DNA from: Mytilus edulis
Lineage: Eukaryota
NCBI RefSeq assembly: GCF_963676685.1
Contig: NC_092345.1
Span: 38,378,001-38,442,000 of the forward strand
DNA: 64,000 nucleotides
Direction of reading: 5' to 3'
In this document: piece by piece, positions 3,969 through 57,500 of the stretch
Numbering within the stretch: position 1 is the stretch's first letter
Layout: the number at the start of each line of letters is the position of its first letter
The notes under the pieces: generated by a model
Told to the model about the DNA's origin: nothing
The model's input: the letters and a program-made list of their open reading frames with translations, nothing else
Databases searched by the model: none
Position numbers and translations under genes: made by a program

Positions 3969-4490
3969 CTTTGTTGTACATACAATCTGGTAAGTAATCT
4001 TTCGACAGATATCTTCTAGATAGGTAATGGTTTTCTTATCAGCTGAACAAATACCGACCAACTAATAAGAATGCTGTATTTAGTCATGATATTCGAAAAT
4101 ATAAAAATTCCACACTGCTTAATTTCAAAATAATTAATGTCACTTGAATAATTATCCTTGTTATTTTTAAAATAAGTGTTATATTTATCATAAAATAAGA
4201 ATTCATTCAAATGGTTTATCTTTAAAATGCAGTTCAAGATCAAACTATTAAATTTGGCACAATGAATTAGTACCTTACCCAATGTATGAAATCTGTTTTT
4301 CTGTGATTGTCGTTACTTGATGTTAGTCATATTTGGCATTCGTTTATTGATTTTATTTGAAACAGATTTTTTTTTCTCTTGACAATTTATAATGACGAAT
4401 TACTTAAAGCTTTCAATACGGTATGTGTTTTGCTCATTGTTAAAGCTGTATAGTGGCCAATAGTTTTTATACAGGTCTCTGTTGGATAGT

Positions 4491-6141
4491 TGTCTCGTTG
4501 GTAATTATATAAACATCTCTTTATTTTTTCTTAAGTTAAATGTTTGCCAGTGGGCGTTAAACAAACACCAATCCATTTATCCATCTGAATCATCGCCAAA
4601 CAAGCAAGATAAAGGTCAAATGAAATATGTTCATTACAATGTAGTTTGATAGTGTTTTACACCCGACATATTGTGTCAACTTTAACCTATTGGCTCATGG
4701 AAATATAAGAAAGCCGAGAAGAATCATTCAAAATTCAAAATAAAATAAAAAATAATAGTTTATAATTCATAATTTTGTCTCATAATCTTATAGAAGTGCT
4801 ATTACAATTTTTCTTTTTTGATTGATATATAAAAAAAACAGTAACCCCTTGGTCTTCTTCCGATTTGCAGTAAACGCTTGTTCTTGTTTTGCTGTGCAGG
4901 ACACATAGATGATGTTCGGGGTTGCCATGATAAAGGAATTACCAATTAAATTTCCTAAATTTTTAGGTTATACCCTGCTGCTGGTGGACTATAGTACTTG
5001 TCGTGTGATGACCTATAGTTGTTAATTTGTTATGTCAGTTGGATTCTTATGGAGAGTTGTCTCATTGGCACTCATACCGCATCTTCTTTCTATATAAGAT
5101 TACAAAAATACATGTATATTTAACCTAGTAACCAGTGCATTAATTCTGGTCTGATTTATTTGACAGTTTGTGTAAAAATATACTGAGTAAATCATTTTGC
5201 AAAAATGCTAGGGTTTTATCCTCTCTGATGGTTTAAACTGTTTTTGTTACTATCGAAACTAATAAAGATTATTCGAAAAACACTTCCTGAAACTTTCTAT
5301 CTTTTCCAAAAACCTTTGGTAAAATGGTGACAAATTGATATCCAGAAAACACTTCATACAAAGCCGGTAAAACTAGTTACGCATTTTAAATACTTTGATT
5401 TACCACACAAGTCGATGGCATGTACTGGACGTTTTTCCCCGGTGCACACATCAAAATAATTACATTAGATGCATTGTATGTTTCATTATAATACGTTATT
5501 CTGATTGGCTAACTGCACATCGCGTGTTATTCCTTAAGCAATTGCATTACTCAATGAAACTTATCATTCATGTTAACACGAGGTTCCACAATAAAGTGCA
5601 CAGGTGAATTAAATCAAAAGTTGATAAAATTCGTGTTTTCATGATCCTAGCTAAAAAATGTAATTATAAGAATTGAATGCTTCTTTTTGTAACTTCATAG
5701 GGTTGTAAAAGCGTTGACTGTGCGCACATTTTTAGAATGAAGCGCTTCCGCGCTTCATACAAAATGTACTTCGGTCAATGCTTTTACATCCAGGTAGAAT
5801 GAAGTTACAAAAAGAAGCATTCAATTCTTAAGTAGTTTCACAATGAGTGTAAATGAATACAACATTGATTTGTCATCAGGTATTCAAGTATCACAACTAG
5901 AAAAAATAGGAAGCTTCCTGAAATAAACGTTGCTTGAACGTTAAATACATTTTATTCTTCTAAAGTAACAAGACTTTGGATGTGGGTCAAATTTAAATCA
6001 TGGTTGTTTTAATTATTTTGGCATTGTGTCGATATTTGTAGTGGACTATCAGTTTCCGAGTTTATCATCATCTCAGAACATCGTTACTGACATGATTTAA
6101 AACAATGTTTGTTTAGATTTACCGTTTTTCAATTTAGAAAG
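4491..6141 (+). repeat. 1.65-kb direct repeat, left copy (putative giant target-site duplication)
   Basis: Matches 10330-11980 at a constant offset of 5839. The only difference I found is C4877/T10716. Confidence 0.95.
5457..5831. mobile_element. Double-hairpin non-autonomous element (further copies at 11296-11670 and 18363-18728)
   Basis: An arm bounded by TAATTACATT...AATGTAATTA and containing TCTGATTGG is followed by a roughly 165-bp palindrome centred on GAAGCGCTTCCGCGCTTC. Confidence 0.7.
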
Positions 6142-6143
6142 GT

Positions 6144-6593
6144 TTGCCGCACAGGACACATGAAACGCAAAATGAAGGAAACAGAAACATTTCGAAACAA
6201 AATACGGGAAACAATGAAATTACTTATAAAATTCCTGTTCGACTTGAAGGAGTCACTAACAATGTTGAAACGACAAATGAAAACTTTTTTACGGGTGTTA
6301 CGAAGAACAGAACGGCTAGGTATTACATGTCAGGAATTGACTCAAAATCTACACGAGCTGGAATTTTAAATTACTTAGAAAATAAAAATGTACATGTAAC
6401 ATACTTACGTTTGTTTAGCACAAGGAACAATGATCGTCGGATAGCTGCAAAGCTTAACATCACAGAAAATTGTGCAGAAATTGTTGAAACAGAAAACTTT
6501 TGGCCGAAAGGCGTGTATTGTAGAAAATGGTTAAGCAACCGTGAATGGAATCAACGCTTTACGGATGATGTTCATCATGAACCAGACTCATAA
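6144..6593 (+). CDS. LINE ORF1, C-terminal fragment (RRM-like)
   Basis: YYMSGIDSKST...AAKLNI...FWPKGVYCRKW resembles the C-terminus of RRM-type LINE ORF1 proteins; it starts at the 5' truncation point. Confidence 0.75.
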   Translation: MPHRTHETQNEGNRNISKQNTGNNEITYKIPVRLEGVTNNVETTNENFFTGVTKNRTARYYMSGIDSKSTRAGILNYLENKNVHVTYLRLFSTRNNDRRIAAKLNITENCAEIVETENFWPKGVYCRKWLSNREWNQRFTDDVHHEPDS

Positions 6594-6605
6594 TAAACAA
6601 TTAAA

Positions 6606-9600
6606 ATGCAGTGTAAAATTTTATTTTCCCCTGTTACCTTGGTTACCTTGTTTCTTATAATGTCTAGTCTAAAACTTTTAGCATGGAATGTAAGAGGTAT
6701 TATGTCTTCTACTGTATGTTTGAGTAATTTATTAAGAAGTACTGACTGTGATGTTTGTATTATCTCTGAACATAAACTTAAAACCAGATCCTTAAATTAT
6801 TTGTCAAGTATTGAACAAGGATATAATTGTGTATGTAAAGCTGATTCATTGCCTAATTTTTATAACGCATATCATGGTAAAGGTGGTATTGCCATCCTCT
6901 ATAAGAGCACACTTCAATTTTCTATTAATGAAATTCATGATACGAACTCAGAAAGAATTGTTGGTCTTGAGATCAAAACCCCATCTAAAGGGTCATTATT
7001 TATTTTTGGTGCATATTTACCATCTGATGAATCTGTAGATAACTATAGAACTGAACTTAATATATTAGATGCATTATATACTCATTATAGTAATTATGGA
7101 AATGTTATAATCGCAGGGGATTTAAATGCCAGTTGTCTTGAGAAAGATAAATTATGTTCAAACAGGTATAAATCAGTGGAGCTAATAAAATTTGTTAAAA
7201 GATATCAATTGCTGTTTTCAGGTGGAAAAATTAAACATAAAGGGCCAGATTATACATTTATTAATAAGACATCAATGATTGATTATATTCTTATGAATGA
7301 TAGTATATATAGGCAGCTTAAGTCTTATGAAATACTTAGCGAGGGTTCGGTCAGTAGCACATCCGATCATTTACCAGTTTTAGCCGAAATAGAGTTGCAA
7401 CATAATCCTCATCAAATAGTGAATTCATTAAATAAGCTACCAGCATGGCATAAAATAACGGACGATCAAATCGCAAAGTACAAACAATTTTTACACGAAC
7501 CTTTACAAATTTTGATTAAGAAAATGGACTCAGATAATGCAGATATTGATACTATATACAACGATATGGTGACTATTTTACATGCTGCCGCAGATAAAAC
7601 TGTCCCGAAGTGTGGATTTAATCCTTTTACTAAACCGTATTGGACGGCTGGTGTTAAGATTGCCCACGAGAAGGAACGATCATTACGAAAAGCCTGGGTT
7701 ATTGACGGTCGTCCTAGAGGTATGCATCACAATTCATATAAGTTATACAAGAGAGCAAAACATGAATTCCGAAATATACAACAGGCTGCGTATGAACAAT
7801 ATATACAACAAACTAACGATGACATTAATAAGGCAGCTGAATGCGATATCCGTCTTTTTTGGAAACTCATTAAGCGTAATAAAACTGTCTCGTCTAAAAT
7901 TTATCCTGAAATAATCCAAGATGATAATATATGCAACACTCCCGAAAGCATCGCTAATGCATTTATGGACTACTTTTCGAAACTTTACCAACCTGACAGT
8001 GATGAAATGTATGATAATGACACGAAACAACAGATTGAACTTGATTACAATAAAATATTAAAATCTTGTTATGAACAAAACGTGTATTTACCCGGTGGTA
8101 TTATCCAAGAAAGTGAAGTTGATGGTATAATCAAACTCTTGAAGCGTAGAAAAGCTAGTGGTCATGACAAAATTCAACATGAACATCTGTTGTATGGTGG
8201 AAATACTTTAGTCCGATGCTTAACGACGTTATTCAATCTAGTTGTGAGTAAAGGTCGTATCCCTTATGGATGGAAACTAGGTCTTCTTGTTCCATTATTT
8301 AAAGGCAACAATAAACCTAAGACTTCACCGGACAGTTACCGACCAATCACCTTACTTCCATGTGTTCTCAAAGTGTTCGAGCATATTATTAAGTCAAGAT
8401 TGATGTTATATGTCTTCGATGGAAGTGTCTTTCCGAACCCTCAGCAGCAAGGTTTTCAGAAATATCTTGGATGTCTCACTGCATCTTTTAATTTACATGA
8501 AACTATATTTCATAATATTGAATTATTTAGTAAAATTTTTGTAGCATTCCTGGATAGCAGGAAAGCATTTGATACAGTATGGAGGCTAGGTTTAATGTAC
8601 AAACTGTTTAAACTTGGTGTAAATGGTAAACTATGGTTAATTATTAATGACTGTCATTATAATACGAAAAGTGCAGTTATTGTCAATCAATGTCAATCAG
8701 ATTTTTTCCCTGTATTAGAAGGTGTACGACAAGGAGGTGTGCTCTCAGGGTTATTGTATTTAGTTTTTATAAATGATTTAATTTGTGATCTGGAAAAATT
8801 TAATCCAAATACAGGTATTTTCAATATCAATTGTTGTGCACCTGCTCTTGCAGATGACATATCATGTATTGCCACATCTCCAGCTTCCTTGCAACGTATG
8901 CTTAATGTGTGTAACCAATATTCAAAGAAATGGCGTTTTCGTTTCAATGCAAATAAGTCGTGTATCATTCAATTTTCTGTGAATACGAGAGAGATCAATG
9001 TCAATTTTCCATGGTTTATTGGTAATGAACGTATCCCGATAGCAAATAACTATCTACACTTAGGTATAGAACTAAACTCTCGATTTAAATCAAATCAAAG
9101 AACTGAAAGTTCATGTAGAAAAGGCAGAAACGCATACTTTGCATTGAATGGTATAAAGACAAACGCAACGAATCCATGTGTATTACTCAAACTATATAAA
9201 ACTGTGATACTAACCAGTGTATTATACGGGTGTGAGATGTGGAATAACATGAAATCTTATGACAAAGCTACTTTAAACCGGTTTCAACATTTTATAGTGA
9301 AACATATACTCAACTTGAAAACATCGACTCGATCTGATATGTGCGAAAGTATTCTTGGTATTCATCCAATAACAGGATATATTGACAAAAGAAAACTTAT
9401 ATTCCTACAAAAACTGTGTACCTTAGACATTTCCTCTCTTTCTAAGAAGATATTTCTTACCAGGTTGTTTACTTTCTTTTTAGATTCTCAAAGGAAGCAA
9501 TACGGATTTATTCCTGATATCATTGAGATTTTAAAACAGTATGGACTTATGAGTTACCTTCTTGACTATATTGAAGATGGAACATTTCCGTCAAAACAAA

Positions 9601-10115
9601 TTTGGAAGTCTATCGTTTATAGCGCAGTTGATAGTATACAGTTAAACAATTGGTTACACCGTGTTAATTCTGATGACAACTTCACACGTTTCAGGAATAT
9701 TCATACATCAGTGACAATTACGGAATTTTGGAAACACTCAAGTTGTTTTAAGGAGATTAAAAATTCCTTTTTAATCACCAAATTACTAACTGAAATACCA
9801 AATACAACAAGTAATACATGTGATATATGTACAAGGAATTTTAAAGATGTTTATGTACACGCTTGCTGCAATTGCCCAAGTACTAATGAACAGTGCGAAG
9901 TATGGTGGGACATTTTAAGTAACAATTTTCCAGTGCAGCTTTACTGTGAATTAAGCATGTATGACGACGAAATCCTGTTTCAAATTTTACTCGGTCGAAA
10001 ACCACTGACAATTTTTTCAAGCATAGATGAATCCGATCAATTTCTCAAGCTGTGTCATGCACATGTTATCCAGTGTGTAGCAGAATATAGTCGATCTCTT
10101 AGACAGTGTTGTTAG
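6606..10115 (+). CDS. LINE ORF2: apurinic endonuclease + reverse transcriptase + C-terminal Cys/His knuckle
   Basis: APE motifs WNVRG, SEH, GDLNA, IDYI, SDHLPV. RT motifs YRPITLL, QQGF, FLDSRKAFDTV, GVRQGGVLS, LADD, HLGI. C-terminal CDIC-x9-H-x4-C. 1169 aa with no stops. Confidence 0.97.
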   Translation: MQCKILFSPVTLVTLFLIMSSLKLLAWNVRGIMSSTVCLSNLLRSTDCDVCIISEHKLKTRSLNYLSSIEQGYNCVCKADSLPNFYNAYHGKGGIAILYKSTLQFSINEIHDTNSERIVGLEIKTPSKGSLFIFGAYLPSDESVDNYRTELNILDALYTHYSNYGNVIIAGDLNASCLEKDKLCSNRYKSVELIKFVKRYQLLFSGGKIKHKGPDYTFINKTSMIDYILMNDSIYRQLKSYEILSEGSVSSTSDHLPVLAEIELQHNPHQIVNSLNKLPAWHKITDDQIAKYKQFLHEPLQILIKKMDSDNADIDTIYNDMVTILHAAADKTVPKCGFNPFTKPYWTAGVKIAHEKERSLRKAWVIDGRPRGMHHNSYKLYKRAKHEFRNIQQAAYEQYIQQTNDDINKAAECDIRLFWKLIKRNKTVSSKIYPEIIQDDNICNTPESIANAFMDYFSKLYQPDSDEMYDNDTKQQIELDYNKILKSCYEQNVYLPGGIIQESEVDGIIKLLKRRKASGHDKIQHEHLLYGGNTLVRCLTTLFNLVVSKGRIPYGWKLGLLVPLFKGNNKPKTSPDSYRPITLLPCVLKVFEHIIKSRLMLYVFDGSVFPNPQQQGFQKYLGCLTASFNLHETIFHNIELFSKIFVAFLDSRKAFDTVWRLGLMYKLFKLGVNGKLWLIINDCHYNTKSAVIVNQCQSDFFPVLEGVRQGGVLSGLLYLVFINDLICDLEKFNPNTGIFNINCCAPALADDISCIATSPASLQRMLNVCNQYSKKWRFRFNANKSCIIQFSVNTREINVNFPWFIGNERIPIANNYLHLGIELNSRFKSNQRTESSCRKGRNAYFALNGIKTNATNPCVLLKLYKTVILTSVLYGCEMWNNMKSYDKATLNRFQHFIVKHILNLKTSTRSDMCESILGIHPITGYIDKRKLIFLQKLCTLDISSLSKKIFLTRLFTFFLDSQRKQYGFIPDIIEILKQYGLMSYLLDYIEDGTFPSKQIWKSIVYSAVDSIQLNNWLHRVNSDDNFTRFRNIHTSVTITEFWKHSSCFKEIKNSFLITKLLTEIPNTTSNTCDICTRNFKDVYVHACCNCPSTNEQCEVWWDILSNNFPVQLYCELSMYDDEILFQILLGRKPLTIFSSIDESDQFLKLCHAHVIQCVAEYSRSLRQCC

Positions 10116-10329
10116 ATGTGTCAATACATGATGTGTCACTGCATTTTTACTTAAACATTGCTTGCATAGACTATTTATATATTATCTTTTGTGTATTTAC
10201 CTTATATTTTGCTCTTATACTAAAATTGTGTGTGTAATTATATTGTAACGTTTACTTATATTTAATTATTGTATGTTCATTGAATCTCATTTATGAGGAA
10301 TTAAAGATATGAATGAATGAATGAATGAA

Positions 10330-11980
10330 TGTCTCGTTGGTAATTATATAAACATCTCTTTATTTTTTCTTAAGTTAAATGTTTGCCAGTGGGCGTTAAA
10401 CAAACACCAATCCATTTATCCATCTGAATCATCGCCAAACAAGCAAGATAAAGGTCAAATGAAATATGTTCATTACAATGTAGTTTGATAGTGTTTTACA
10501 CCCGACATATTGTGTCAACTTTAACCTATTGGCTCATGGAAATATAAGAAAGCCGAGAAGAATCATTCAAAATTCAAAATAAAATAAAAAATAATAGTTT
10601 ATAATTCATAATTTTGTCTCATAATCTTATAGAAGTGCTATTACAATTTTTCTTTTTTGATTGATATATAAAAAAAACAGTAACCCCTTGGTCTTCTTCC
10701 GATTTGCAGTAAACGTTTGTTCTTGTTTTGCTGTGCAGGACACATAGATGATGTTCGGGGTTGCCATGATAAAGGAATTACCAATTAAATTTCCTAAATT
10801 TTTAGGTTATACCCTGCTGCTGGTGGACTATAGTACTTGTCGTGTGATGACCTATAGTTGTTAATTTGTTATGTCAGTTGGATTCTTATGGAGAGTTGTC
10901 TCATTGGCACTCATACCGCATCTTCTTTCTATATAAGATTACAAAAATACATGTATATTTAACCTAGTAACCAGTGCATTAATTCTGGTCTGATTTATTT
11001 GACAGTTTGTGTAAAAATATACTGAGTAAATCATTTTGCAAAAATGCTAGGGTTTTATCCTCTCTGATGGTTTAAACTGTTTTTGTTACTATCGAAACTA
11101 ATAAAGATTATTCGAAAAACACTTCCTGAAACTTTCTATCTTTTCCAAAAACCTTTGGTAAAATGGTGACAAATTGATATCCAGAAAACACTTCATACAA
11201 AGCCGGTAAAACTAGTTACGCATTTTAAATACTTTGATTTACCACACAAGTCGATGGCATGTACTGGACGTTTTTCCCCGGTGCACACATCAAAATAATT
11301 ACATTAGATGCATTGTATGTTTCATTATAATACGTTATTCTGATTGGCTAACTGCACATCGCGTGTTATTCCTTAAGCAATTGCATTACTCAATGAAACT
11401 TATCATTCATGTTAACACGAGGTTCCACAATAAAGTGCACAGGTGAATTAAATCAAAAGTTGATAAAATTCGTGTTTTCATGATCCTAGCTAAAAAATGT
11501 AATTATAAGAATTGAATGCTTCTTTTTGTAACTTCATAGGGTTGTAAAAGCGTTGACTGTGCGCACATTTTTAGAATGAAGCGCTTCCGCGCTTCATACA
11601 AAATGTACTTCGGTCAATGCTTTTACATCCAGGTAGAATGAAGTTACAAAAAGAAGCATTCAATTCTTAAGTAGTTTCACAATGAGTGTAAATGAATACA
11701 ACATTGATTTGTCATCAGGTATTCAAGTATCACAACTAGAAAAAATAGGAAGCTTCCTGAAATAAACGTTGCTTGAACGTTAAATACATTTTATTCTTCT
11801 AAAGTAACAAGACTTTGGATGTGGGTCAAATTTAAATCATGGTTGTTTTAATTATTTTGGCATTGTGTCGATATTTGTAGTGGACTATCAGTTTCCGAGT
11901 TTATCATCATCTCAGAACATCGTTACTGACATGATTTAAAACAATGTTTGTTTAGATTTACCGTTTTTCAATTTAGAAAG
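10330..11980 (+). repeat. 1.65-kb direct repeat, right copy
   Basis: Begins at the last base of the LINE tail and ends ...ATTTAGAAAG, where it diverges from the left copy. Confidence 0.95.
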
Positions 11981-45700: not shown

Positions 45701-48700
45701 TAATAACACCCATAGTTATTTTTTCTCCAACATTTTTATTTTATTTATCCATGTACTCATGTCATGTCGATAACAAAAATTCAAAAGGTATATATACCTA
45801 TGGAGCCTCAAATAATATTTTATCTTATATTCTTTTAGTTTTTACACAAAACCAGGGTGGTGGGATACTTTTTTGAAGGTGTACACTTTAAAAAAAACAC
45901 AATGCTAAACACATCATTTATGCATTTTGGTCTAAACTTGTCCCAGTTCTAAAGGTGTTTACATGTATTGTGTTTAAATATTAACTACAATCCTTAACAC
46001 TTTCATACTTCAACATCTAATACAAAGGTTTAATTTCTAGGCACGAATTTAACAGTGTATATTTTGAAGATTGGGAATGATCTATCTTCAGACACCTTGT
46101 AATCTACTTAATAATTGAATCATTGCTCTATCTAAATCAGTTTGTTTTGGAATTTTGAGACAAACACTTATTGGTCACTTTGACTCGCAAATAATCTATG
46201 CCAGCTTCAGCTGTTTAGAATATAACGATATTATCATTACCATCATCAAATCTTGTTTGAAAACACACAAACGATACATAATGATGTATATACACTCCAC
46301 ATGTGTGTTTCGTATAAGTATGTGAACTCGTGTTCAAAGTTCGTTAAGCCTGCATTATTAGATATTTGGGAGCAATACAATCATCTTGGCCTAAATATAA
46401 AATCTAAAACCCATTTATGTGATCGTTGCCCCAAGTTTTTAAACAATTGTGCATTGAAATGTAGGAAATAGATAATTATGTAATTCATGTAAACATTCAA
46501 AACAAAAAGTACAGAATAAACAAAGCGTCTTTAGTTCCAGATCCCTTTTCGGTGCCCGTCAAGTCACTTATTTCTTATTGAATTATGTCATTAATTATTC
46601 GAAAGGACTTACTTGTTGCTACGATCAAACTTAATTGTTTTTTTTCATTCATCAACGATGCAATACAATGAATACAGAGCATATTTTCTAGCCTTTCGGA
46701 ACATCAGAAATCACTCGTTCAATCTGTAAATGTTGTCAAAACTTTTAAGCATGGAGCCTGTACTTTTCTCTTTGCACTCTTCAAAATTTTCTGTATTCAT
46801 AATGACTATAGTTCTAAATATCCGCACAACAGAGTTAAATCTGCAAATTGGCGGAAGCAAATTTTTGTTCTTCCTTCATAAACTCATCATAGATACCAGG
46901 ACTAAATTTAGTATATATGCCAGACGCGCGTTTCGTCTACAAAAGACTCATCAGTGACGCTCGAATCCAAAAAAGTTAAAAAGGCCAAATAAAGTACGAA
47001 GTTAAAGAGCATTGAGGACCAAAATTCCTGAAGGTTTTGCCAAATATAGCTAAGGTTATCTATGCCTGAGGTAGAAAAGCCTTAGTATTTCAAAAAATTC
47101 AAATATTTGTAAACAGTAAATTTATAAATATAACCATATCAATGACAATTTATTTCAGCACAAAAAATGCTCGTTCTGCTTTGTTGTTAATACTTCCGCT
47201 TTATTTACTCTTGAACAAACCGAATTAATCAATTAGCTTTTGTTCGTTAATGTGAGGAACTAAGTTATCAATTTAATAGAAACGAACAGGTAAATAAATT
47301 AAATCCTGAAATCTAAAATTTAGAAACTTAATACTGGTAAAACTACCCACGCTCTTACAAAAAATAACTTATTTTCACGAAAAGTACAAGTTTTCGTACA
47401 AATGAACAAGTTTAACTATATCATTTAGGCTTTGAAGCAAGAGTTATTTTGAAGAGCAAGACACCAAGCCGTCTAGCGGAATCAATTTCTTACTACTTCA
47501 GTCCAGCAGTACCAAAATCAAACCGAAAGTGGTATTTGTCAAAAGTTGGTTATCTCGTTGATCCTACAAATGTCGTTCAGAATGGAAGTCAATATGTACA
47601 CGGTATAGTAATTTTTAGCTCACCTGACCTGAAAGGTCAAGTGAGCTTTTCTCATCACTTGGCGTCTGTCGTCCGTCGTCGTCGTCGTCTGTTAACTTTA
47701 ACAAAAATCTTCTCCTCTGAAACTACTGAGCCAAATTTAACCAAACTTGACCACAATCATCACTAGGATATCTTGTTTTAAAAATGTGTCTGATGACCCG
47801 CCTGCCAACCAACGTGGTCGACATGGCTAAAATTGAATATAGGGGTAAAATGCTGTTTTGGCTTATATATCTGAAACTAAAGCATTCAGAGCCAATCTGA
47901 CAAGGTGAAAAAAGTTTATGAGGTTAAGATCTATCCGCCTTGAAATTTTCAGACGAATCCGACAACCCGTTGTTTGGTTGCTTCCAACGAGTTGGTGATG
48001 TTAGGAAAGTTTGCAGTTTTTGGTTATTATCTTGAATATTGTTATAGATAGAGATAAACTGTAAACAGCAATAATATTCAGCAAAGAAAGATCTACAAAT
48101 AAGTCAATATTACCAAAATTGTCAGTGGACCCCTCAAGGATTAATTGCCCTTTATAGTAGGGATGGCAACGAGTACTCGTGTACTCGCTCGGAAGGCCGA
48201 AAACTCGAGTACAGTTTTAGTACTCAGATACTCGTTTGCCTGTTATACATCTTGATACAGTTATCTTCACATTTCCATTCGTTTAGTTCTGTTGATATAC
48301 CTCTTTCGTAATACTAAATAAAATCAATTAACAACATAAATATGTTTATCCTGAGGATTTTGTTATAGTAGTGCAAGCAATTGCAACTACCATTCCTTCC
48401 AAGTTAATGTTATCATGTGCACTACTTGTAAAAAAAATATAGAAAGTCAAACAGTCTTTTGTCTGAAATTGTTGACCAGATCATATTTCTAAACAAGAAC
48501 AAAATCCAAGTGACCTGAGGTGAACCCTATGCAACTGATTGGAGAAATTTTTAATGGTGTTGTACACGGATCAACACTTTCATGGATTGATAATTAACTC
48601 ATAAAAATTTACCTTTGTTTGTTAATCAAGACTTCTATGTAAACGTAATTGGTATGAGATGTACATTTAATCAATTTAATTTAATTACTCTGTTTTCGAA

Positions 48701-51700
48701 ACTTAACAATATTTTTTTTATTTACAATTTAGAGATAGGCGAAAGTACGAGAGTGACATTCAAACACAAAAGTCGAAAATCAACTGACAACGTCATGGCT
48801 AAAAAAAAGAAAATCAGACAAACGATTGTGCCAAAAAAAAAACAACTGAAAAATTAATACTGAGCAACACGAAAAAGCACAAGTAATTTGAAGTCCAATA
48901 TTGTTGTTGACAAATTAATGGAGAAGTCGTATTATAAAAAAAAATACCAACTCCTCATGCAGGAACAGATGATACATATAATGTCTACTTTGTCGGACTC
49001 TATATGCAAATATTTTTTTGGATTTTATTGGAATGTGGTTCATGAACATGTACACAAACGATAATTGCTATTATTATAGGTTATTTGTGAAAACTGCGGT
49101 CGGTAATTCATTGTTTAATTGACACAAAAACGACAGAGGAGCAAGCTATATTTGTAATACGTTTGTCTTTCATTAATATGTTTATGAAAGGTAATAACAA
49201 AAACACTGCATCCAACCTAAAATCTAAACTTTTCAATAAGCGTTTAAGATTACTCCGAGTACTCGCGAGTACACGAGTATCATGACCGAGTATCCGAGTA
49301 TTAAATTTCAGATCTTTTGACATCCCTACTTTATAGTCAATTTTTTAACAATTTTTCGTAAATTTTTGTAATCCCTTACAAAAATCTTCTCCTCTGAAAC
49401 TACTGAGACAAATTTAATAAAACTTTGTTACAATCATCACTAGGGTATCATGTTTAAAAATGTGTCCTGAATTTGTGATTTTTATGAAATTTTGCAGTTT
49501 TTATACGACAGCAAAAAATTAACAAAGTTTGGTCGTATATTGGTATCCCTTCGTCGTCGTCGTCGTCAGCGTCGTCCGAAGACAGTTGATTTCAGGATAA
49601 TAACTTTATTATAAGTTAATATAAATAAATAATATTTAAACACAAGGTTTATAACCATTAAAGAACAGTTGGGATTGATTGGGGGTTATGGTCCCAATTG
49701 GAATTAGGGGCCAAAAAAGGGGTTCAAATAAGCATTTTTTTGTAGATTCGAGACAAAAACTTGTGTTAAAGTGTGTGGATCTTTCTAAATTTGTACCACA
49801 AGGTTCCATAGCAAAAAAAGAAACGTTGGGACTGATGTTTTAGGTTATGGCCCAAACTGCTTAGGAATGAAGGGCCAAAAACAATACTTTTCTAATACTT
49901 GCATAAATTGCTTATTTATTGACCAATTTCAATTGGGTTTTATCTTTTAATTCTTGGGCTTCTTTAAAATGCTGACTCTAACAGTTTGTTAAGGCCCTGT
50001 TTTTAAATTGTCCACATTGAGGTCCAAATGGTCCAAAATTAAACTTTGTTTGATTTCAACAATAATTGTATAGATGGGGTTCTTTGATATGCTGAATCTA
50101 ACCATGAATTTATATTTTTTTTATCTTTGGCCCCTACATCAAATTGAGGTCAAAAGGGTCCAAATTTAAACTTTGTTTGATTTCCTCAAAATTTGAATTA
50201 TTGAGGTTCTTTGATATGCCGAATCTAACTGTGTACTTATATTTTTAATTATGGGTCCTGTTTTCAAATGGGTCTACATTAAGGTTCAAAGGGTCCAAAA
50301 TGAAACTTAGTTTGATTTAAAAAAAAAAATGAATTTTTGGGGTTCTTTGATATGCTGAATCTGAACAAGTATTCGGATTTTTAATTTTTGGGCCTCGTTA
50401 TCAAATTGGTTCACATTGAGGTCAAAGGGTCCAGAATTAAACTTTGTTTGATTTCAATAAAAATTGAATTATTGTGTTTCTTTGATATGCTGAATCTTAC
50501 TATGTATTTATATTTTGGATATTGAATATAGCTAAATTTGAAAATTTTAAGTTCAATATGACCCCGTTTATTCTGTGTCAGAAACCTATGCTGTGTCAAA
50601 TATTTAAACACAATCCAAATTCAGAGCTGTACCAAGCTTGAATGTTGTGTCCATACTTGCCCCAACTGTTCAGAGTTCGACCTCTGTGGTCGTATTCTAG
50701 CTGGAACAGTTTATTGGTTATTATAGATAGAGATAAACTGTAGACAGCAACAATGTTCAGCAAAGTAAGATCTACAAATAAGTCAACACGACCAAAATTG
50801 TCAGTCCACCCCTTAAGGAGTTATTGTCCTTTATAGTCAATTTTTAACAATTTTCCTAATTTTTTGTAATCTTTTACAATAATCTTCTTCTCTTAAACTA
50901 CTGAGACAAATTTAACCAAACTTAGCCATAATCATCATTAGGGTATCTAGTTTTAAAAATGTGTCCGATGACTTTTGTTGGGTTGCTGCCCCTGAGTTAA
51001 TAATTTTACGGAACTTTTGCAGTTTTCTGTCATCTTATATCTCATTATAGTATCTAATAATAGCTTATATCTAATACTATTAATTATTATTTTAATCTTA
51101 TTTTACACGATTTCCAAAGCATCAGTAAATACAGGTGAGCGACACAGTCTCTTAAGAGCCTCTAGATTATTTGTATATTTTGTTTTACAATAGCTGTTCG
51201 CAGAACAATGAATTAATTCCGCAAATACGCAATATTTTACAGCACAGACTAGTACAAAGTTTTTGTTGTTGAGGAAGAGACAAACATCACTAGAGAAATG
51301 AATATCGAAATAGCCCTTTCTTTGAAATATAACAAATTCGTGAGCATTTTGCTGTCTTAAAATATGTATCCTCAGACAACGCATGTGTTCGACACCATAC
51401 AAAAAGTTATCTTAAAACAAAGAAATCACAATATATTATAAGACATTTTTTTTCTCGAAAAGGTGAACAAACTAAGCTACATAGAAAATATTTCGAGTGA
51501 AAAAAAATCGATAGTCAAGTTAATGGTTTTTTTAATAAAAATATCTTGAATTAGTAAAGAATATAGTGCAAAAGAAGACTTTTATGTATTTTACAATACA
51601 TTGTAAAACATTTTGTTTTTGTAAAATAGGTATTGTATTCTCTCTACATGTTTATCTTTTAGCGGTTGATAATGGGGCATATTATATTGACGAGTCAGGA

Positions 51701-51940
51701 AATGGTCTTCAGTTAATAACTTAAGATGCACCTTTAGTTGTTATAGGGACAAAAACGAAGCATCCATCACCATTTCCTGTACCACTTGAACCAATTACCG
51801 TTGATGACATTAAAGGCATTGGGTTTAACATCTATAATAACATATGGAATACAAACTATGTTTTGTGGTATCCGTATGATGAAAATGATTTCGACAAATC
51901 TATACAGACACGATATTCAATTGATTTTATGGTGAGGTAA
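30778..51940 (+). CDS. Secreted DUF5054 / GH38-like glycoside-hydrolase-related protein, 14 exons; premature TAA in the last exon of this copy
   Basis: Exons 30778-30840, 31006-31072, 31986-32197, 33041-33245, 33501-33650, 34050-34192, 34813-35038, 35392-35529, 36509-36655, 38483-38601, 42485-42686, 45121-45243, 47429-47602, 51663-51940. All GT-AG with consistent phases; total 2247 nt. Signal peptide, VHVLFMNHLDVGY, WHAGP, QRDVPG, EIGDTWIQG, PEHTWG, DAPLV and NIYNNIWNTNY motifs. Family assignment is from motif recall. Confidence 0.88.
31323..31670. mobile_element. Double-hairpin non-autonomous element, second family (intron 2)
   Basis: A roughly 160-bp palindrome centred on CCGCGAAGCGG is followed by an arm bounded by ATAAATAAATTT...AAATTTATTTAT and containing AACCAATCAG. 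Confidence 0.7.
37230..37630 (+). mobile_element. Highly degenerate Penelope-like RT relic
   Basis: Remnants of EIQDTT, KSATY and ISQLIRYSR motifs with frameshifts. Confidence 0.5.
37678..37721 (+). ncRNA. Type I hammerhead ribozyme motif (intact)
   Basis: GCATCA-CTGAAGA-GACA-tgtat-TGTC-GAAA-TGCGCA-TC/TGGTGC: full core, 6-bp stem I, 4-bp stem II, palindromic stem III, AUC cleavage triplet. Confidence 0.8.
42960..43676 (+). CDS. Penelope-like reverse transcriptase, C-terminal 238 aa
   Basis: FRYLDD, FLDL and IYDKRDDFSFPIVNYPFL...YGVYISQLVRFARVC. The ORF stops without a C-terminal GIY-YIG domain, consistent with N-terminal-endonuclease Naiad PLEs. Confidence 0.85.
   Translation: MTKISKDPSKQHLINKFNNTFRYLDDILSLNNDDFSMYINEIYPVELTLNKANTNNDHCPFLDLDIYITNGKLNTKIYDKRDDFSFPIVNYPFLDGDVPLSPSYGVYISQLVRFARVCNNVLDFNERNLCITEKLLHQGFRYHKLVKTFTKFYHRYKDIIRKYSSTCRLLIRSGISHPIFYGNILYKAQRCQYSPQKLTKPLNRLIKKGYNYDTVVKSLKIAYFGVNIESLIRSLHRN
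43727..43793 (+). promoter_or_regulatory. Type II SECIS element in the PLE 3' UTR
   Basis: ATGAT core (43738-42), helix II GGTATGATACT/AGGATTGTGCC, AAA (43754-56), CCC-ctaac-GGG mini-helix, TGAT (43780-83), helix I TCATAT/ATATGA. Confidence 0.75.
46917..46960 (-). ncRNA. Type I hammerhead ribozyme motif (intact) in a roughly 290-bp retrozyme-like repeat (about 46878-47165)
   Basis: Minus strand reads GCGTCA-CTGATGA-GTCT-tttgt-AGAC-GAAA-CGCGCG-TC/TGGCAT. Confidence 0.8.
48158..49328. mobile_element. Non-autonomous hAT element
   Basis: TIRs TAGGGATGGCAA / TTGACATCCCTA, perfect 8-bp TSD CTTTATAG (48150-57, 49329-36), subterminal CGAGTA repeats. Confidence 0.9.
49500..50712 (+). mobile_element. 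Second HINE-like family nested in the first
   Basis: TATACGAC.../GGTCGTAT subterminal IRs, (GTC)n, about four 130-bp tandem units (GGTCCAAAATTAAACTTTGTTTGATTTC); inserted into a T-tract of the host element. Confidence 0.7.
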
Positions 51941-53219
51941 AGCATGGTGAACACAGATTAATTAAATTAAAAATGTCAAAATAAAATCTTCTGTTTTATT
52001 CGTCAACTTCCGCCAGTAGTATAAAGTGCAATATAAGTATTGTCAAAAGATGTAGTATGATTTATTATGTATAAATATATTAATTGTAGATATATACACG
52101 CATGTTAAATGTACGCAGCATCAATAAAACGTATCAGATAACGAATACAAGTTGTCTCCCATTGAATATATGTTTCGTATAACTATAATCAGTGACATAT
52201 AGCACAAGATTTTCGCAACTGTCCAAATTATCTTTAACTATCACAAACACCAACGAACACTCACGAGAACTCCTTGGTCATTAGAATTACAGAAGGACGG
52301 TCTTAGAAATACTTTTTTTTAAACTGAATAGCTTTCAGTGTAGTAAGGGTTTAGTATGTTTTTTATTACTCTTTCTGCATAAGCGGTTTTGTATTCTTAC
52401 GTAAACGGAAAAAAGTCACAGGACAGAAGGTCACAAATTTGAAATCACAGTCACTACGGCATGTACGGTGGCAGTTCATTCATTTTTGAAAAGACAGTTC
52501 TGACTCACACACATATTATGTTTACCACATTTACGCTATTGAAGATACACAGCATGTGTAGTCATGTAAAATAACATTGCAAAATATGGTGTATTGAATA
52601 CCAGAGAAGAGCTGTTAAAAGTCTGGGTTTTCAGTATTTGCCTAGTTTTTTCCAACGACCCTTTGGAAGAACCCATCCCTTACGAAGAGTCTGATTTAGA
52701 GGGGGAAATCAGCTCTCACCAGCAAGTCTTTAAGGCATTTGGGAATACGTAAAGCCAAGAATATCTAGATTTTTGTTTTATTTCTTCCCAATTTTTGCCG
52801 ATAAGGTGTTATAACTTGTCGGCATATTCGACCGCAAAGTTCTTGTTTTCGTCTTTTAGCAGTATTATTTGTGAAACAAATCCGTTCTATTCGGCTGTAA
52901 GTAATGCTCTTGGTGTAATATATAAGACGATAATAACTCAAAGGAGAAATGTATTGATGTTTGTGTTACGGCTTACAATACATATTTAATAACCTGTTTT
53001 CGTTGGTATCATTTGGTGTCAACGTTTTCAACTTTTGTATCCAAAATCTTCCCAGAGTGACACTCTCCTCTCTGAACCATGGTGCACGTCGTATCAGTCG
53101 GGTGACTATTGAAAATCTGGAACATTTAAAATTGTTATGTAAATATGTTACCTCTAAGAAGACAACTAATCAGAAAATCAAATGCCGACAATGAATTTTC
53201 TACCATAAATACGATACAT

Positions 53220-53900
53220 CAAACCGAGCAACAAGTAATCACTATGCTAGAGTTGACAATATATGTGTTGAATTTATAGGTACACTTTTACAACAAATTA
53301 CCGACATTTCTAACCGAACTAACTGTGCGTCTCTTCTTATCGACCTCTTACTGCCATACACGAATATAAAAGAAGCCAAATCATTTAACTTCACATTCAA
53401 ATTTATTTATGGTGTTTTTTCAATTAACATACAAGACTTTTCTGATATGGTTTTATTATTATATACTCCAAAACAAGAAATTAAAGAAACAGCAGACACG
53501 GCTTTATCTGCCTATTAATTTCAAGACGATTTTCTTGAATACGTAAAAAGCGGTCATCTCAGTACCCGAAACTCTGACAAACAAGAAGTTTTTATTTTTT
53601 TAAATATAACTTTTCACCATCTTAACAGCAATATACCAACTTCACCAGAATATGAGATATACATTTCAATACTTATTCGATATCTGAGATGTTGAAACTG
53701 CTACTCAGACTTTGTAAAACGTCCAAGTGTCTAAGAAAAAGTTAATGAATCAGGATTATGTCAAAGACCGATTCGCCCTTTTTCTCTAAAATTGCAGTGG
53801 AAGATACCAAGACCTTGTTTATATCAATGTCCATGTCAAGTCCACAAATAATGCATGATGGTCTTGAAGTATAGCTTCTATTGTTGATACTTTATTCGTT
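53220..53900 (+). mobile_element. Degenerate Penelope-like RT relic
   Basis: Remnants VDNICVEF, TNCASLLIDL, EIKETADTALSA and SNIPTSPEY...ILIRY with frameshifts. Confidence 0.6.
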
Positions 53901-54549
53901 TCATATTGATTAAAGTTATAAAATTATATTGGCTGTTTCAATTAAATTTATTTTACAGTTTTACCGAGCTGTGAGACTCCTCATTAAGAAGAGCAATTTT
54001 GTTGTTTCTTTTTTTTTCCTAAGAACTCTCTTTTGCTGATAAGATACTACAAATTAAACGAGAAGTCCATGCATTTCCTGTCAATAAAGTATCATTTGAA
54101 TCGAGAATTGTAACATATATCAATATGTTAAATCGATATTCGAAAGACGGTTGTGGCATAATTCATGCCTATCACATACGTTGTCGTATTTATCTGTGTT
54201 TACAAAATATCTTATCGTTTCATCAAATGTTATAGTGCGAAGTATGTACAGCGGTTTTGTCGTTTCATAAATTTTGTTATTTTGTCATAATACATCCATA
54301 ATGTTTGGATTTTTCGCGGATCATGACATTCTTATGAATAATTACTAAAAGTGCATTTTTTATTGAATCAAAAACAAGTATACTCAAAATCTCTGTATAT
54401 AGTTCCAGTCATCACATACACTTATGAAAGAGCAGATGTGTGCTGTGTTACTATTATTTTATTTTACAGGAAACATATTCATTTGTTAATAAAATGAAAC
54501 TTGATCTAGTATCAAATATTTCCGTATATTGTCATTTGAAAAAATAATT

Positions 54550-57500
54550 ATGGCGGTGTTAATCAGTTTTAGTTTGATCATATTAATCTCAGTGATCACC
54601 TGTAAGTACTTTTATCTTTTTCTTTGTTCATTGATTTATATAAAATCACACGATTTTAGAACGATGAGTTTTTTTGTATCGTAGACGTAATAATACATTT
54701 TATATTGCGCTGCCTGTAAGGAGTTCTGTAGGAGGCGAGTGTCTTGCTATTCATTTTAAATTTTAATTTAATAGGTCATGGAATTCTTTCTTCCACTATA
54801 ACTTTAAATGTAATAAGTTATGGAATCATTACATCCCCTCTAACATGTCAATTCAATCCTTGTATTCCCTCATTAATTCTCATGTATGTATTTAAAAAAT
54901 ATAGATGAAGTTAAACCATTTAGGATTATAATCAAGAGAGAAATAGAAGACAATAATCAAATTTGAATTGAAAATAAGTTACATAGTTATGATGAAAATA
55001 GTAATTTATTTTATACAAACATATAAAACTTAGTCGAGATTAAGGATCTAACCTAATGTTCCACGATTCTATTTCACCAAACTCCGTATAACTTACTCCA
55101 ATCTGAAAATTGAAAAGGATGGCTATTTTCAATCTCCTAAAGGAGATGGTTTATCTTAAGTTCTTGAAAACGGGGAAAATTCACTTTTCGAGTGTAAAAG
55201 AGTAATAAATTCAGATAAATTCTCGTTAGAATTTTTTTTTAAAGATGGTAGAACTGAGAACAGAATCACCATAATTTTCCACGTTTTTATATATATATTT
55301 CATGACTGCATCAGTTTAATTCATGTTTACTTTATATTGTATTTAAATTATATGTATAAAACCCTCTTCTTATTTAGCCAAACAGTGTAACATATAGATC
55401 TGAAATATTTTTGTTATTTCCTGCGCGGGATTATAGCAGCCTGCACTGTGTCCAGATTGAATAATTAAGCTTATGTAAAAGTATCTACAACTGTTTATTA
55501 TCAAAGATGAAGTATATCTAAATTTTTTAGTCAGCTTGCATTAGTTTTCCAATACTTACGTGACGAATCAAGAATGTAACTTACAATTCAACAAGCCAGT
55601 TCTCACAGGTAAACAGCTTGGGAACAACCCCTGAAATGAAGGATAATCCCACAATGTAATGACTATCGCTTTTTTAAGGGGTAGATTCCAAGTAATTAGA
55701 AATATTTGTTGTTAAAAAAAACATACTATTTGCAAAAACTTTTCCCAAAGAACTATACATCTATCTAATAACATATTGCTAAAACATGTCTAAGAATTTT
55801 GGAATATTCATGGACTACAATTTTTTTAATTTCAAAATTATAAATAGTAGAATTAAACTCATCATAGAACCAGGATTAAAACTTTATATTTACGCTAGAA
55901 GCGCGTTTCGTCTACAAAAGATTCATCAGTGACGCTCAAATCAACAAATGTAAAAAAAAAATAAAAAAGGCCAAATAAAGTACGTAGTTGAAGAGCATTG
56001 AGAACCAAAAAGAATAGAAAAGTTGTTCTAAATATAATGAATTTTCGCCTTTTTAGCTCAACTCGCCAAAAGGCCCAAGTGAGCTTTTCTCAACACTTTG
56101 CGTCCGTCGTCGTCCGTATTCGTTTACTTTTACAAAAATCTTCTCCTCTGAAAATACTGGGCCAATTTAAACCAAACCTGGCCACCATCATCATTGGGGT
56201 ATCTAGTTTGAAAAATATGTCCGGTGACCCGGTCAACCAACCAAGATGGCGCCATGGCTGAAAAAAGAACATAGTGGTAAAATGTAGATTTTGGCTTATA
56301 TCTCTGAAACCAAAGCATTTAAAGCAAATCTGACAGGGGTAAAATTGTTAATCAGGTAAAGATCTATCTGCCCTGAAATTTCAGATGAATCCGAGAACCC
56401 GCTGTTGAGTTTCTGCCCCTAAATTGGTATTTTAAGGAAATTTTTCCGCTTTTGGTTATTATCTTGAATACTATAATGGATAGAGATAAACTGTAAACTG
56501 CAATAATGTTCAGCAAAGTAAGATCTACAAATAAGTCAACATTACCAAAATGGTCAATTGACACCTTAAGGAGTAATTGCCCTTTATATTCAATTTTTAC
56601 AATTCTTTTACATTTTTTGTAATCTTTTACAAAAATCTTCTCTGGTGGTTCTAAGACAAATTTAATCAAACTTGTCCACAATCGTCATTAGGGCATCTAG
56701 TTTAAAAATGTGTCCGATGACCCCGCCCGTGAACCAAGATGGCCGCCATGGCTTAAAATAGTACATAGGGTAAAATGCAGATTTTGACTCATATCTCTGA
56801 AACCAAAGCATAAAGACAAAATATGCTGTAGATAAAATTGTTCATTAGGCCAAGATCTATCCTCCCTGAAACTTTCAGACCATTCGGGCAACTTGTTAGG
56901 CTGCAGCCTGAATTAGTAATTTTAAGGAAATTTTGCAGCTTTTGGTTATTATCTTGAATATTATTATAGATAGAGATAAACTGTAAATAGCTATAACGTA
57001 AAGCAAAGTAAGAGCTACAAATAAGTCCACTTGACCAAAGTGGTCAATTGACCTCATACGGAGTTATTGTCCTTTATAGTCATTTTTTAAACATGTTCAT
57101 AAATTTTGATCTACAAACACATCACAAACACCAAAACACAATTTTGTCACGAATCCATCTGTCTCCTCAATGGAAATTATTTTTTGGCATACTTGATTTA
57201 CATAGGATTTTTCAATAAAATGTTGAAAATATGCTTTAAACATTGCAAAAAACAAATATTTCATCCTTTTCATATTGGATACAAATTCTATTAAGTCTGA
57301 TGCAGACATTTCATAGTCAAAGCGTTGCAACTGAGATACTACACAGGCGTCAAAAGGCGTCATTATGGAGGAAAGGAATAATAAGCACATAGATCAAAAT
57401 GAGCGACACAGGCTCTTTGGAGCTTCTAGTTTAGTTTAAAAAGCCAAGTTTTTGGTTTTTCTCTTCTATACAACAGCGAATTACTCCCTTTCTGAGGGGG

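Follow-up and report, generated by a model that had tools for sequence, protein, structure and literature searches.

Duplications of target DNA in the kilobase range are already known from several long interspersed nuclear elements (LINEs). In Chlamydomonas reinhardtii, more than half of the insertions of Dualen-4b_cRei are accompanied by duplications longer than 50 bp that resemble target-site duplications (TSDs), with a median length of 900 bp, and the presence of two endonucleases, a restriction-like (RLE) and an apurinic/apyrimidinic-type enzyme (APE), was suggested as the cause (PMC9977147). The present analysis deals with a 64,000-nucleotide stretch of the Mytilus edulis genome (contig NC_092345.1, positions 38,378,001 to 38,442,000), referred to as the window, in which a 5'-truncated LINE is enclosed by two copies of a 1,651-bp sequence. 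The mussel element and its relatives share with Dualen-4b_cRei the family-level habit of long and variable duplications, but only an APE is apparent in the mussel element, the duplications are inherited in an animal, and they are found at a lower rate (about 22%) and with a median of 376 bp. Human L1 likewise is a LINE with a single APE and a broad spread of TSD sizes, between tens of bp and several kb; TSDs longer than 100 bp never exceeded 10% in HeLa cells, compared with 57-91% in mutants, and reached 6.8 kb in cells deficient in nucleotide excision repair (NER) (PMC5223499). Those data were obtained with an engineered element in cultured cells, whereas the mussel copies are natural germline insertions. 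The L1-associated tandem duplications of 1-10 kb (bioRxiv 10.1101/2024.12.14.628481) and of 22.6 Mb (PMC7058536) also differ from the mussel cases in being somatic or experimental and rarer than deletions. A kilobase-scale TSD from a non-L1 LINE is known for ZfL2-2, where 1,228 bp were duplicated in one of 25 insertions in chicken DT40 cells, a case described as rare (PMC2666801). For bivalves, enriched RTE-X and Proto2 LINEs of about 4.9-5.7 kb have been reported (PMC10294476); the available parts of that paper and of a 2026 bivalve structural-variant preprint give no TSD lengths, and no report of long TSDs in bivalve, RTE-X or Proto2 LINEs was found in the literature outside subscription papers, Repbase entries and supplements.

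The new aspect is not the kilobase TSD itself but the high rate of inherited long duplications in a LINE lineage of an animal in which a single endonuclease is recognisable. On balance, we are inclined to the view that between a fifth and two-fifths of the germline insertions of a bivalve RTE-like lineage with a single APE duplicate 0.04-2.7 kb of host DNA and that the duration of reverse transcription sets the length. Such elements are likely to copy host DNA routinely upon insertion, and long duplications probably do not require the two endonucleases invoked for Dualen.

The duplicated host sequence and its empty site

Self-comparison of the window aligned the two 1,651-bp copies (Table 1) without gaps at an offset of 5,839 bp, with a single mismatch (C at 4877, T at 10716) and with identity ending at both boundaries. 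The first base of the enclosed LINE corresponds to position 1,172 of a full-length paralogue of 5,355 bp, and the 5' junction shows a 2-bp microhomology (AG). The layout proposed in the original prediction, a repeat with one substitution whose boundaries coincide with the truncation point and the tail of a LINE, was therefore recovered. The duplicated sequence is regarded as host DNA because it begins inside a common repeat, as 12 of 18 matches to 4381-4560 among the fetched loci continue across 4490|4491, and because it contains a high-copy element resembling miniature inverted-repeat transposable elements (MITEs), whose own-genome matches are 90-92% identical and self-inverted among the best 40 of 5,257 candidates scored. 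Moreover, the repeat was found beside no other family copy examined (loci L001-L060), different host DNA is repeated at each locus of the surveyed LINE copies, and a Pfam scan of ORF2 (ORF, open reading frame) detected none of the protease, RNase H and integrase domains expected of a long terminal repeat (LTR) retrotransposon. These data support the earlier interpretation of the repeat as a TSD and not as an LTR.

Contigs from six of 24 runs, representing five samples and five studies, were examined at the window locus. Single contigs bridge 4490|4491 in runs X15, X5 and X7 and 11980|11981 in runs X18, X5, X7 and X6, so that both outer junctions are bridged in samples S5, S7 and S12 and one junction in S6 and S1. 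Contigs matching up to 6141 continue into 534 (X5), 1,875 (X7) or 281 (X1) non-LINE letters, which in X5 and X7 represent the flank from 11981 onwards, and the read depth over the unique parts of the repeat equals that of the flanks, as for single-copy DNA. Other animals carry an empty allele that holds a single copy of the repeat and lacks the LINE, the allele that the original prediction had proposed to look for. All four runs covering 11980|11981 have C at the mismatch site, so the T in the 3' copy is either new or a base error.

The near-identical flanks and the empty sites in other animals indicate that the insertion is recent and polymorphic. The designation of the LINE as young is borne out by these features and by the intact ORF2, which is open over 1,172 amino acids from stop to stop, but not by its identity of only 94.6% to the main copies of its family in the assembly, termed family A, which are 98-100% alike. 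A rough count of ORF2 divergence from the paralogues (dS 0.145, dN 0.021) points to a separate, functional source lineage, of which the window LINE is the single whole copy in the assembly among the best 40 candidates per search. In run X1 (organism A), LINE contigs have 0-3 differences to the window copy per 309-473 bp, unlike the host flank, which differs by about 5%; runs with window-matching flanks carry mainly the other subfamily. Introgression or transfer between Mytilus species may account for the presence of the window subfamily.

Table 1. Features of the LINE insertion and of the duplicated host DNA in the window
Feature	Position	Strand	Basis or remark
5' copy of duplicated host target, 1,651 bp	4491..6141		Self-comparison; single copy in other animals
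High-copy MITE-like element with inverted ends, within duplicated host DNA	5455..5834		Second copy at 11294-11673
5'-truncated LINE, 4,188 bp	6142..10329	+	Without first 1,171 bp of 5,355-bp full-length form; paralogue alignment
ORF1 3' remnant	6142..6593	+	Full ORF1 of 536 amino acids in paralogue, without Pfam match
Intact ORF2: APE endonuclease, reverse transcriptase, C-terminal CX2CX9HX4C	6597..10115	+	dN/dS about 0.14 versus paralogues
(TGAA)5 microsatellite tail	10310..10329	+	Adjoins repeat; next TG common to tail and target
3' copy of duplicated host target	10330..11980		T at 10716; 5' copy and four runs have C

Long duplications at related and unrelated LINEs of the same genome

The TSD lengths of three related LINE families were surveyed in one assembly by own-genome searches, each of which scored the best 40 candidates. 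For 108 copies, including members of an L1/Tx1 family, one script compared the sequence starting at the tail with the sequence ending at the 5' end and called matches of at least 30 bp and at least 90% identity, within a reach of about 8-9 kb in paired fetches and at least 2 kb in single fetches. A filter for at least 90% identity to the family reference, an intact tail and at least 1.5 kb of upstream sequence was passed by 80 copies. Tailless copies (C8:43.78, C9:2.85, C10:64.1, C6:16.75 and C3:104.95), likely duplicates (C6:6.04, C7:4.01, C8:72.99 and small contigs), an array of four copies at C10:12.0M and several matches that were short or weak were left out.

In family A, seven of 15 copies were called and six were kept, with duplications of 1,651, 2,707, 1,764, 376, 137 and 40 bp, all lengths given here including a few bases of microhomology. 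Long duplications recur in the family, being clear in 5/14 copies without the window copy; most of the other family A copies have by eye no TSD or at most 3 bp, and one has about 15 bp. Family B (70% DNA identity) yielded five calls among 18 copies, of which four were kept (703, 226, 165 and 51 bp, with approximate 5' ends), and family C (31% protein identity) three among 13, divided into one kept (673 bp), one probable (about 2.3 kb) and one ambiguous case. Without the window, ten of 45 young copies of the three families (about 22%) carry duplications of 40-2,707 bp that end at both element ends, and the median of the 11 clear cases is 376 bp. No duplication was called at 2,400 random positions. 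In the 13 clear cases, L1/Tx1 included, the paired copies are 97-100% identical (99.1-100% in 10/13, some with indels), as expected for a template on the same or the sister chromatid. At the 5' junctions, 1-9 bp of microhomology or 3-4 additional bases are seen. Longer inserts tend to have longer duplications (rho 0.59, p=0.035, the same 13 cases), and all four duplications of at least 1 kb flank inserts longer than 4 kb.

The repeats at C1:106.1M, C13:74.13M and C7:4.12M were rejected as TSDs, as they lie within tandem arrays; the rejected family A call represents a minisatellite. The arrays at C3:0.716M and C10:12.0M were considered as TSDs expanded by unequal exchange, but their boundaries misfit or are unreadable, and they were treated as later duplications; these loci (L092 at C3:0.716M, L051-L056 at C10:12.02-12.07M) consist of recent tandem or segmental duplications with 3.8-23 kb spacing and 93-99.9% identity that contain old LINE fragments. 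Ambiguous calls concern C11:47.09M (62 bp, 92%), C3:57.3M (about 200 bp, 76%, old copy), C3:60.74M (end-only, old copy) and C7:76.3M, where a 655-bp repeat is offset by 1,468 bp. At the latter locus (L007/L008) the offset follows the tail and is made up of 945 bp of low-copy sequence matching C7:48.88M at 95% and a 525-bp MITE, a layout that represents either a complex insertion or a later rearrangement.

Young L1/Tx1 elements, identified by the zf-RVT domain, provided the comparison within the same genome. Long flanking repeats were absent from all 17 poly-A L1/Tx1 copies with long ORFs, as determined with a separate script and shorter flanks, and the nine that were inspected at the junctions have mostly TSDs of 7-16 bp. 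In L1/Tx1 family D, three of 34 copies were called; two were kept (1,490 and 155 bp), one was rejected as a tandem repeat, and a further copy is probable, while most of the remaining copies have TSDs of 7-19 bp. Long duplications were hence counted in 10/45 RTE-like copies without the window versus 2/51 L1/Tx1 copies (Fisher p=0.011), or 11/45 versus 3/51 (p=0.018) with the probable cases included. The roughly fivefold higher rate in the same genome points to a contribution from each side: long TSDs are allowed by this host, but they arise more frequently in the RTE-like lineage. The original prediction, which took LINE TSDs of a few to tens of bp as the norm, overlooked both the lineage-wide habit and the kilobase precedents. 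The occurrence of a high-rate lineage beside families with TSDs of 7-19 bp renders element and host effects separable. As a side observation, the full-length L1/Tx1 elements L151, L153, L155, L156, L159, L162, L167 and L170 contain three long ORFs.

Origin of the duplication

In target-primed reverse transcription, the endonuclease nicks the bottom strand and the tail primes complementary DNA (cDNA) synthesis at the nick. At the window locus, the nick would lie at about 4490|4491, where the tail would prime the cDNA in agreement with the 3' junction. A replication fork might then convert the nick to a break, and the upstream end could copy 1.65 kb from the sister chromatid by break-induced or restart-bypass synthesis while reverse transcription continues, before the extended host end would be joined to the truncated 5' end of the LINE at the 2-bp microhomology. 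RTE-like families would follow this route with about five times the frequency of L1/Tx1 elements. That the LINE insertion made the 1,651-bp duplication is considered highly probable, and extension of the free host end on the sister chromatid before joining is given a little better than an even chance. Sister copying is favoured since, by geometry, a polymerase starting at either nick would proceed away from the duplicated sequence, and nicks alone would not open 1.6-2.7 kb; a corresponding route has been proposed for the L1 duplications of 1-10 kb (bioRxiv 10.1101/2024.12.14.628481).

The two mechanisms named in the original prediction, a distant second nick and a coupling to repair or replication, remain the two candidates. 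Under the former, which we regard as a close rival though less probable than sister copying, the element endonuclease or chance would cut the second strand 1.65 kb downstream, a helicase would unwind the interval, the cDNA flap would persist and the 3' overhangs would be filled. The standard model indeed equates TSD length with nick spacing (PMC2666801), flap persistence together with a distant nick was proposed for TSDs of up to 6.8 kb in NER-deficient cells (PMC5223499), and longer duplications at longer inserts fit a time-dependent unwinding. On the other hand, 1.6-2.7 kb of duplex would have to be opened without synthesis behind, the host bases at the 3' junctions of ten long-TSD copies reveal no common motif by eye, and ORF2 contains one recognisable nuclease domain. 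It appears unlikely that the tandem duplication arose independently at a broken fork or double-strand break and that LINE cDNA was captured as a repair patch without the action of its own endonuclease. An L1 bridging sister chromatids at a pre-existing break is known from the 22.6-Mb duplication (PMC7058536), and no target motif is evident here; the tails, however, are intact and show tail-target microhomology at the 3' junction, the rate depends on the family (10/45 versus 2/51), and none of the five other samples showed the tandem duplication on an allele free of the LINE. A false duplication assembled around a heterozygous LINE insertion would accord with the single base difference between the copies and with the lack of a filled allele among the contigs listed for the examined runs, but it is very improbable, as a merging of haplotypes should not produce the two new junctions that are needed, the same layout occurs at 12 other loci with pairs of 97-100% identity and some indels, and it is rare around equally long L1/Tx1 inserts of the same assembly. 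The order repeat-LINE-repeat would also result from unequal crossing-over between two LINE copies whose sites on two alleles are separated by 1.65 kb, or from an LTR-like element carrying the repeat; both are scarcely credible, since the repeat differs at every locus and accompanies no other family copy in L001-L060, paired nearby insertions at no fewer than 11 loci are implausible, and the subfamily is represented by one whole copy in the assembly among the best 40 candidates.

Several observations weigh against a lineage-specific habit based on sister copying. The junctions, the sizes and the length trend do not discriminate between sister copying and helicase unwinding from a distant nick, which accounts for the data nearly as well. 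The insert-length trend is a lead only, because the same test applied to the L1 data in Tables 1 and 3 of PMC5223499 was not significant (rho 0.21, p=0.13, n=52, inserts of 2.4-4.0 kb). The trait is not unique to the RTE-like lineage, as the L1/Tx1 elements, intended as a negative control, include the 1,490-bp and 155-bp cases, and the survey counts are small and derived from one assembly and from the 40 best-scoring candidates of each search. The evidence for the filled allele is the assembly itself, as none of the contigs listed for the six runs bridges a LINE junction; contigs drop rare alleles, and the runs are not known to represent the assembled animal.

If the proposed habit holds true, RTE-like LINEs would have been overlooked as generators of tandem duplications and of insertions that are cleanly removable by recombination, and they would offer a natural system for studying how the LINE second strand is primed and the 5' junction made. 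Exons or promoters can be included in duplications of such size, which can also lead to unequal exchange or to a clean removal of the insert and in this way bear on how mussel genomes vary in structure. Long TSDs were noted to be possible substrates of recombination in the manner of LTRs (PMC5223499), and recombination between the 1,651-bp copies would plausibly restore the empty site by precise excision of the LINE. Annotation tools can misread such loci as LTR elements or false duplications.

Affiliation of the element and accompanying observations

The dispersed copies of the family possess a common 3' tail and variable 5' truncations, as is characteristic of APE-type non-LTR retrotransposons, and the window ORF2 matches the Pfam profiles Exo_endo_phos (E 3e-11) and RVT_1 (E 3.7e-27). 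It contains GVRQGGVLS and LYGCEMW, corresponding to the motifs GVRQG-x-LS and YGCE-x-W that we take to be typical of reverse transcriptases of the RTE group (RTE-X/Proto2), while the CR1/L2-type enzyme at L011 reads GVPQGSILGP and IDYCCTVW at the same motifs. A quick reverse transcriptase tree, calculated without labelled references, placed families A and C together, separate from both L1/Tx1 and L011. By these motifs and by exclusion of other clades, the three related families probably belong to RTE-X/Proto2. A CR1/L2-like label derived from the tail was dropped once the ORF2 motifs had been compared, and an L1/Tx1 assignment was rejected in view of the missing zf-RVT match in Pfam, the microsatellite instead of a poly-A tail and the separate tree branch. 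CR1-Zenon elements lack ORF1 and have a poly-A tail (PMC13343379), and were ruled out by the 536-amino-acid ORF1 and the (TGAA)n tail. A Dualen/RandI affiliation was discarded because ORF2, with 1,151-1,172 amino acids, shows only APE and reverse transcriptase in Pfam, where no dedicated RLE profile was run. Over about half its length, the window ORF2 shares 96% identity with proteins from M. edulis and M. coruscus, and relatives were found in Mytilus, Pinctada, Mya and Magallana; bivalve enrichment and a length of about 4.9-5.7 kb are features in common with the RTE-X/Proto2 LINEs of bivalves (PMC10294476), of which the mussel families are probable members.

Full-length copies of families A and B (L080, L061) begin with AAAGATGGCTGCC, and the ATG of ORF1 is located a few bases from the 5' end; this terminal motif resembles a YY1 site and is a candidate for one. 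At L065 (4502-9269), a family C element resides inside a family B copy from which about 148 bp have been removed, representing a target deletion and not a duplication. Numerous 75-bp matches to the 3' end of family C with 92-95% identity (e.g. C12:48921088, C11:80843690 and C9:47287749) suggest a short interspersed nuclear element (SINE) partner. Elsewhere in the window, a cluster of diverged local repeats (75-88%) extends from 47612 to 57089, and a 127-bp tandem array is located at 50013-50506.

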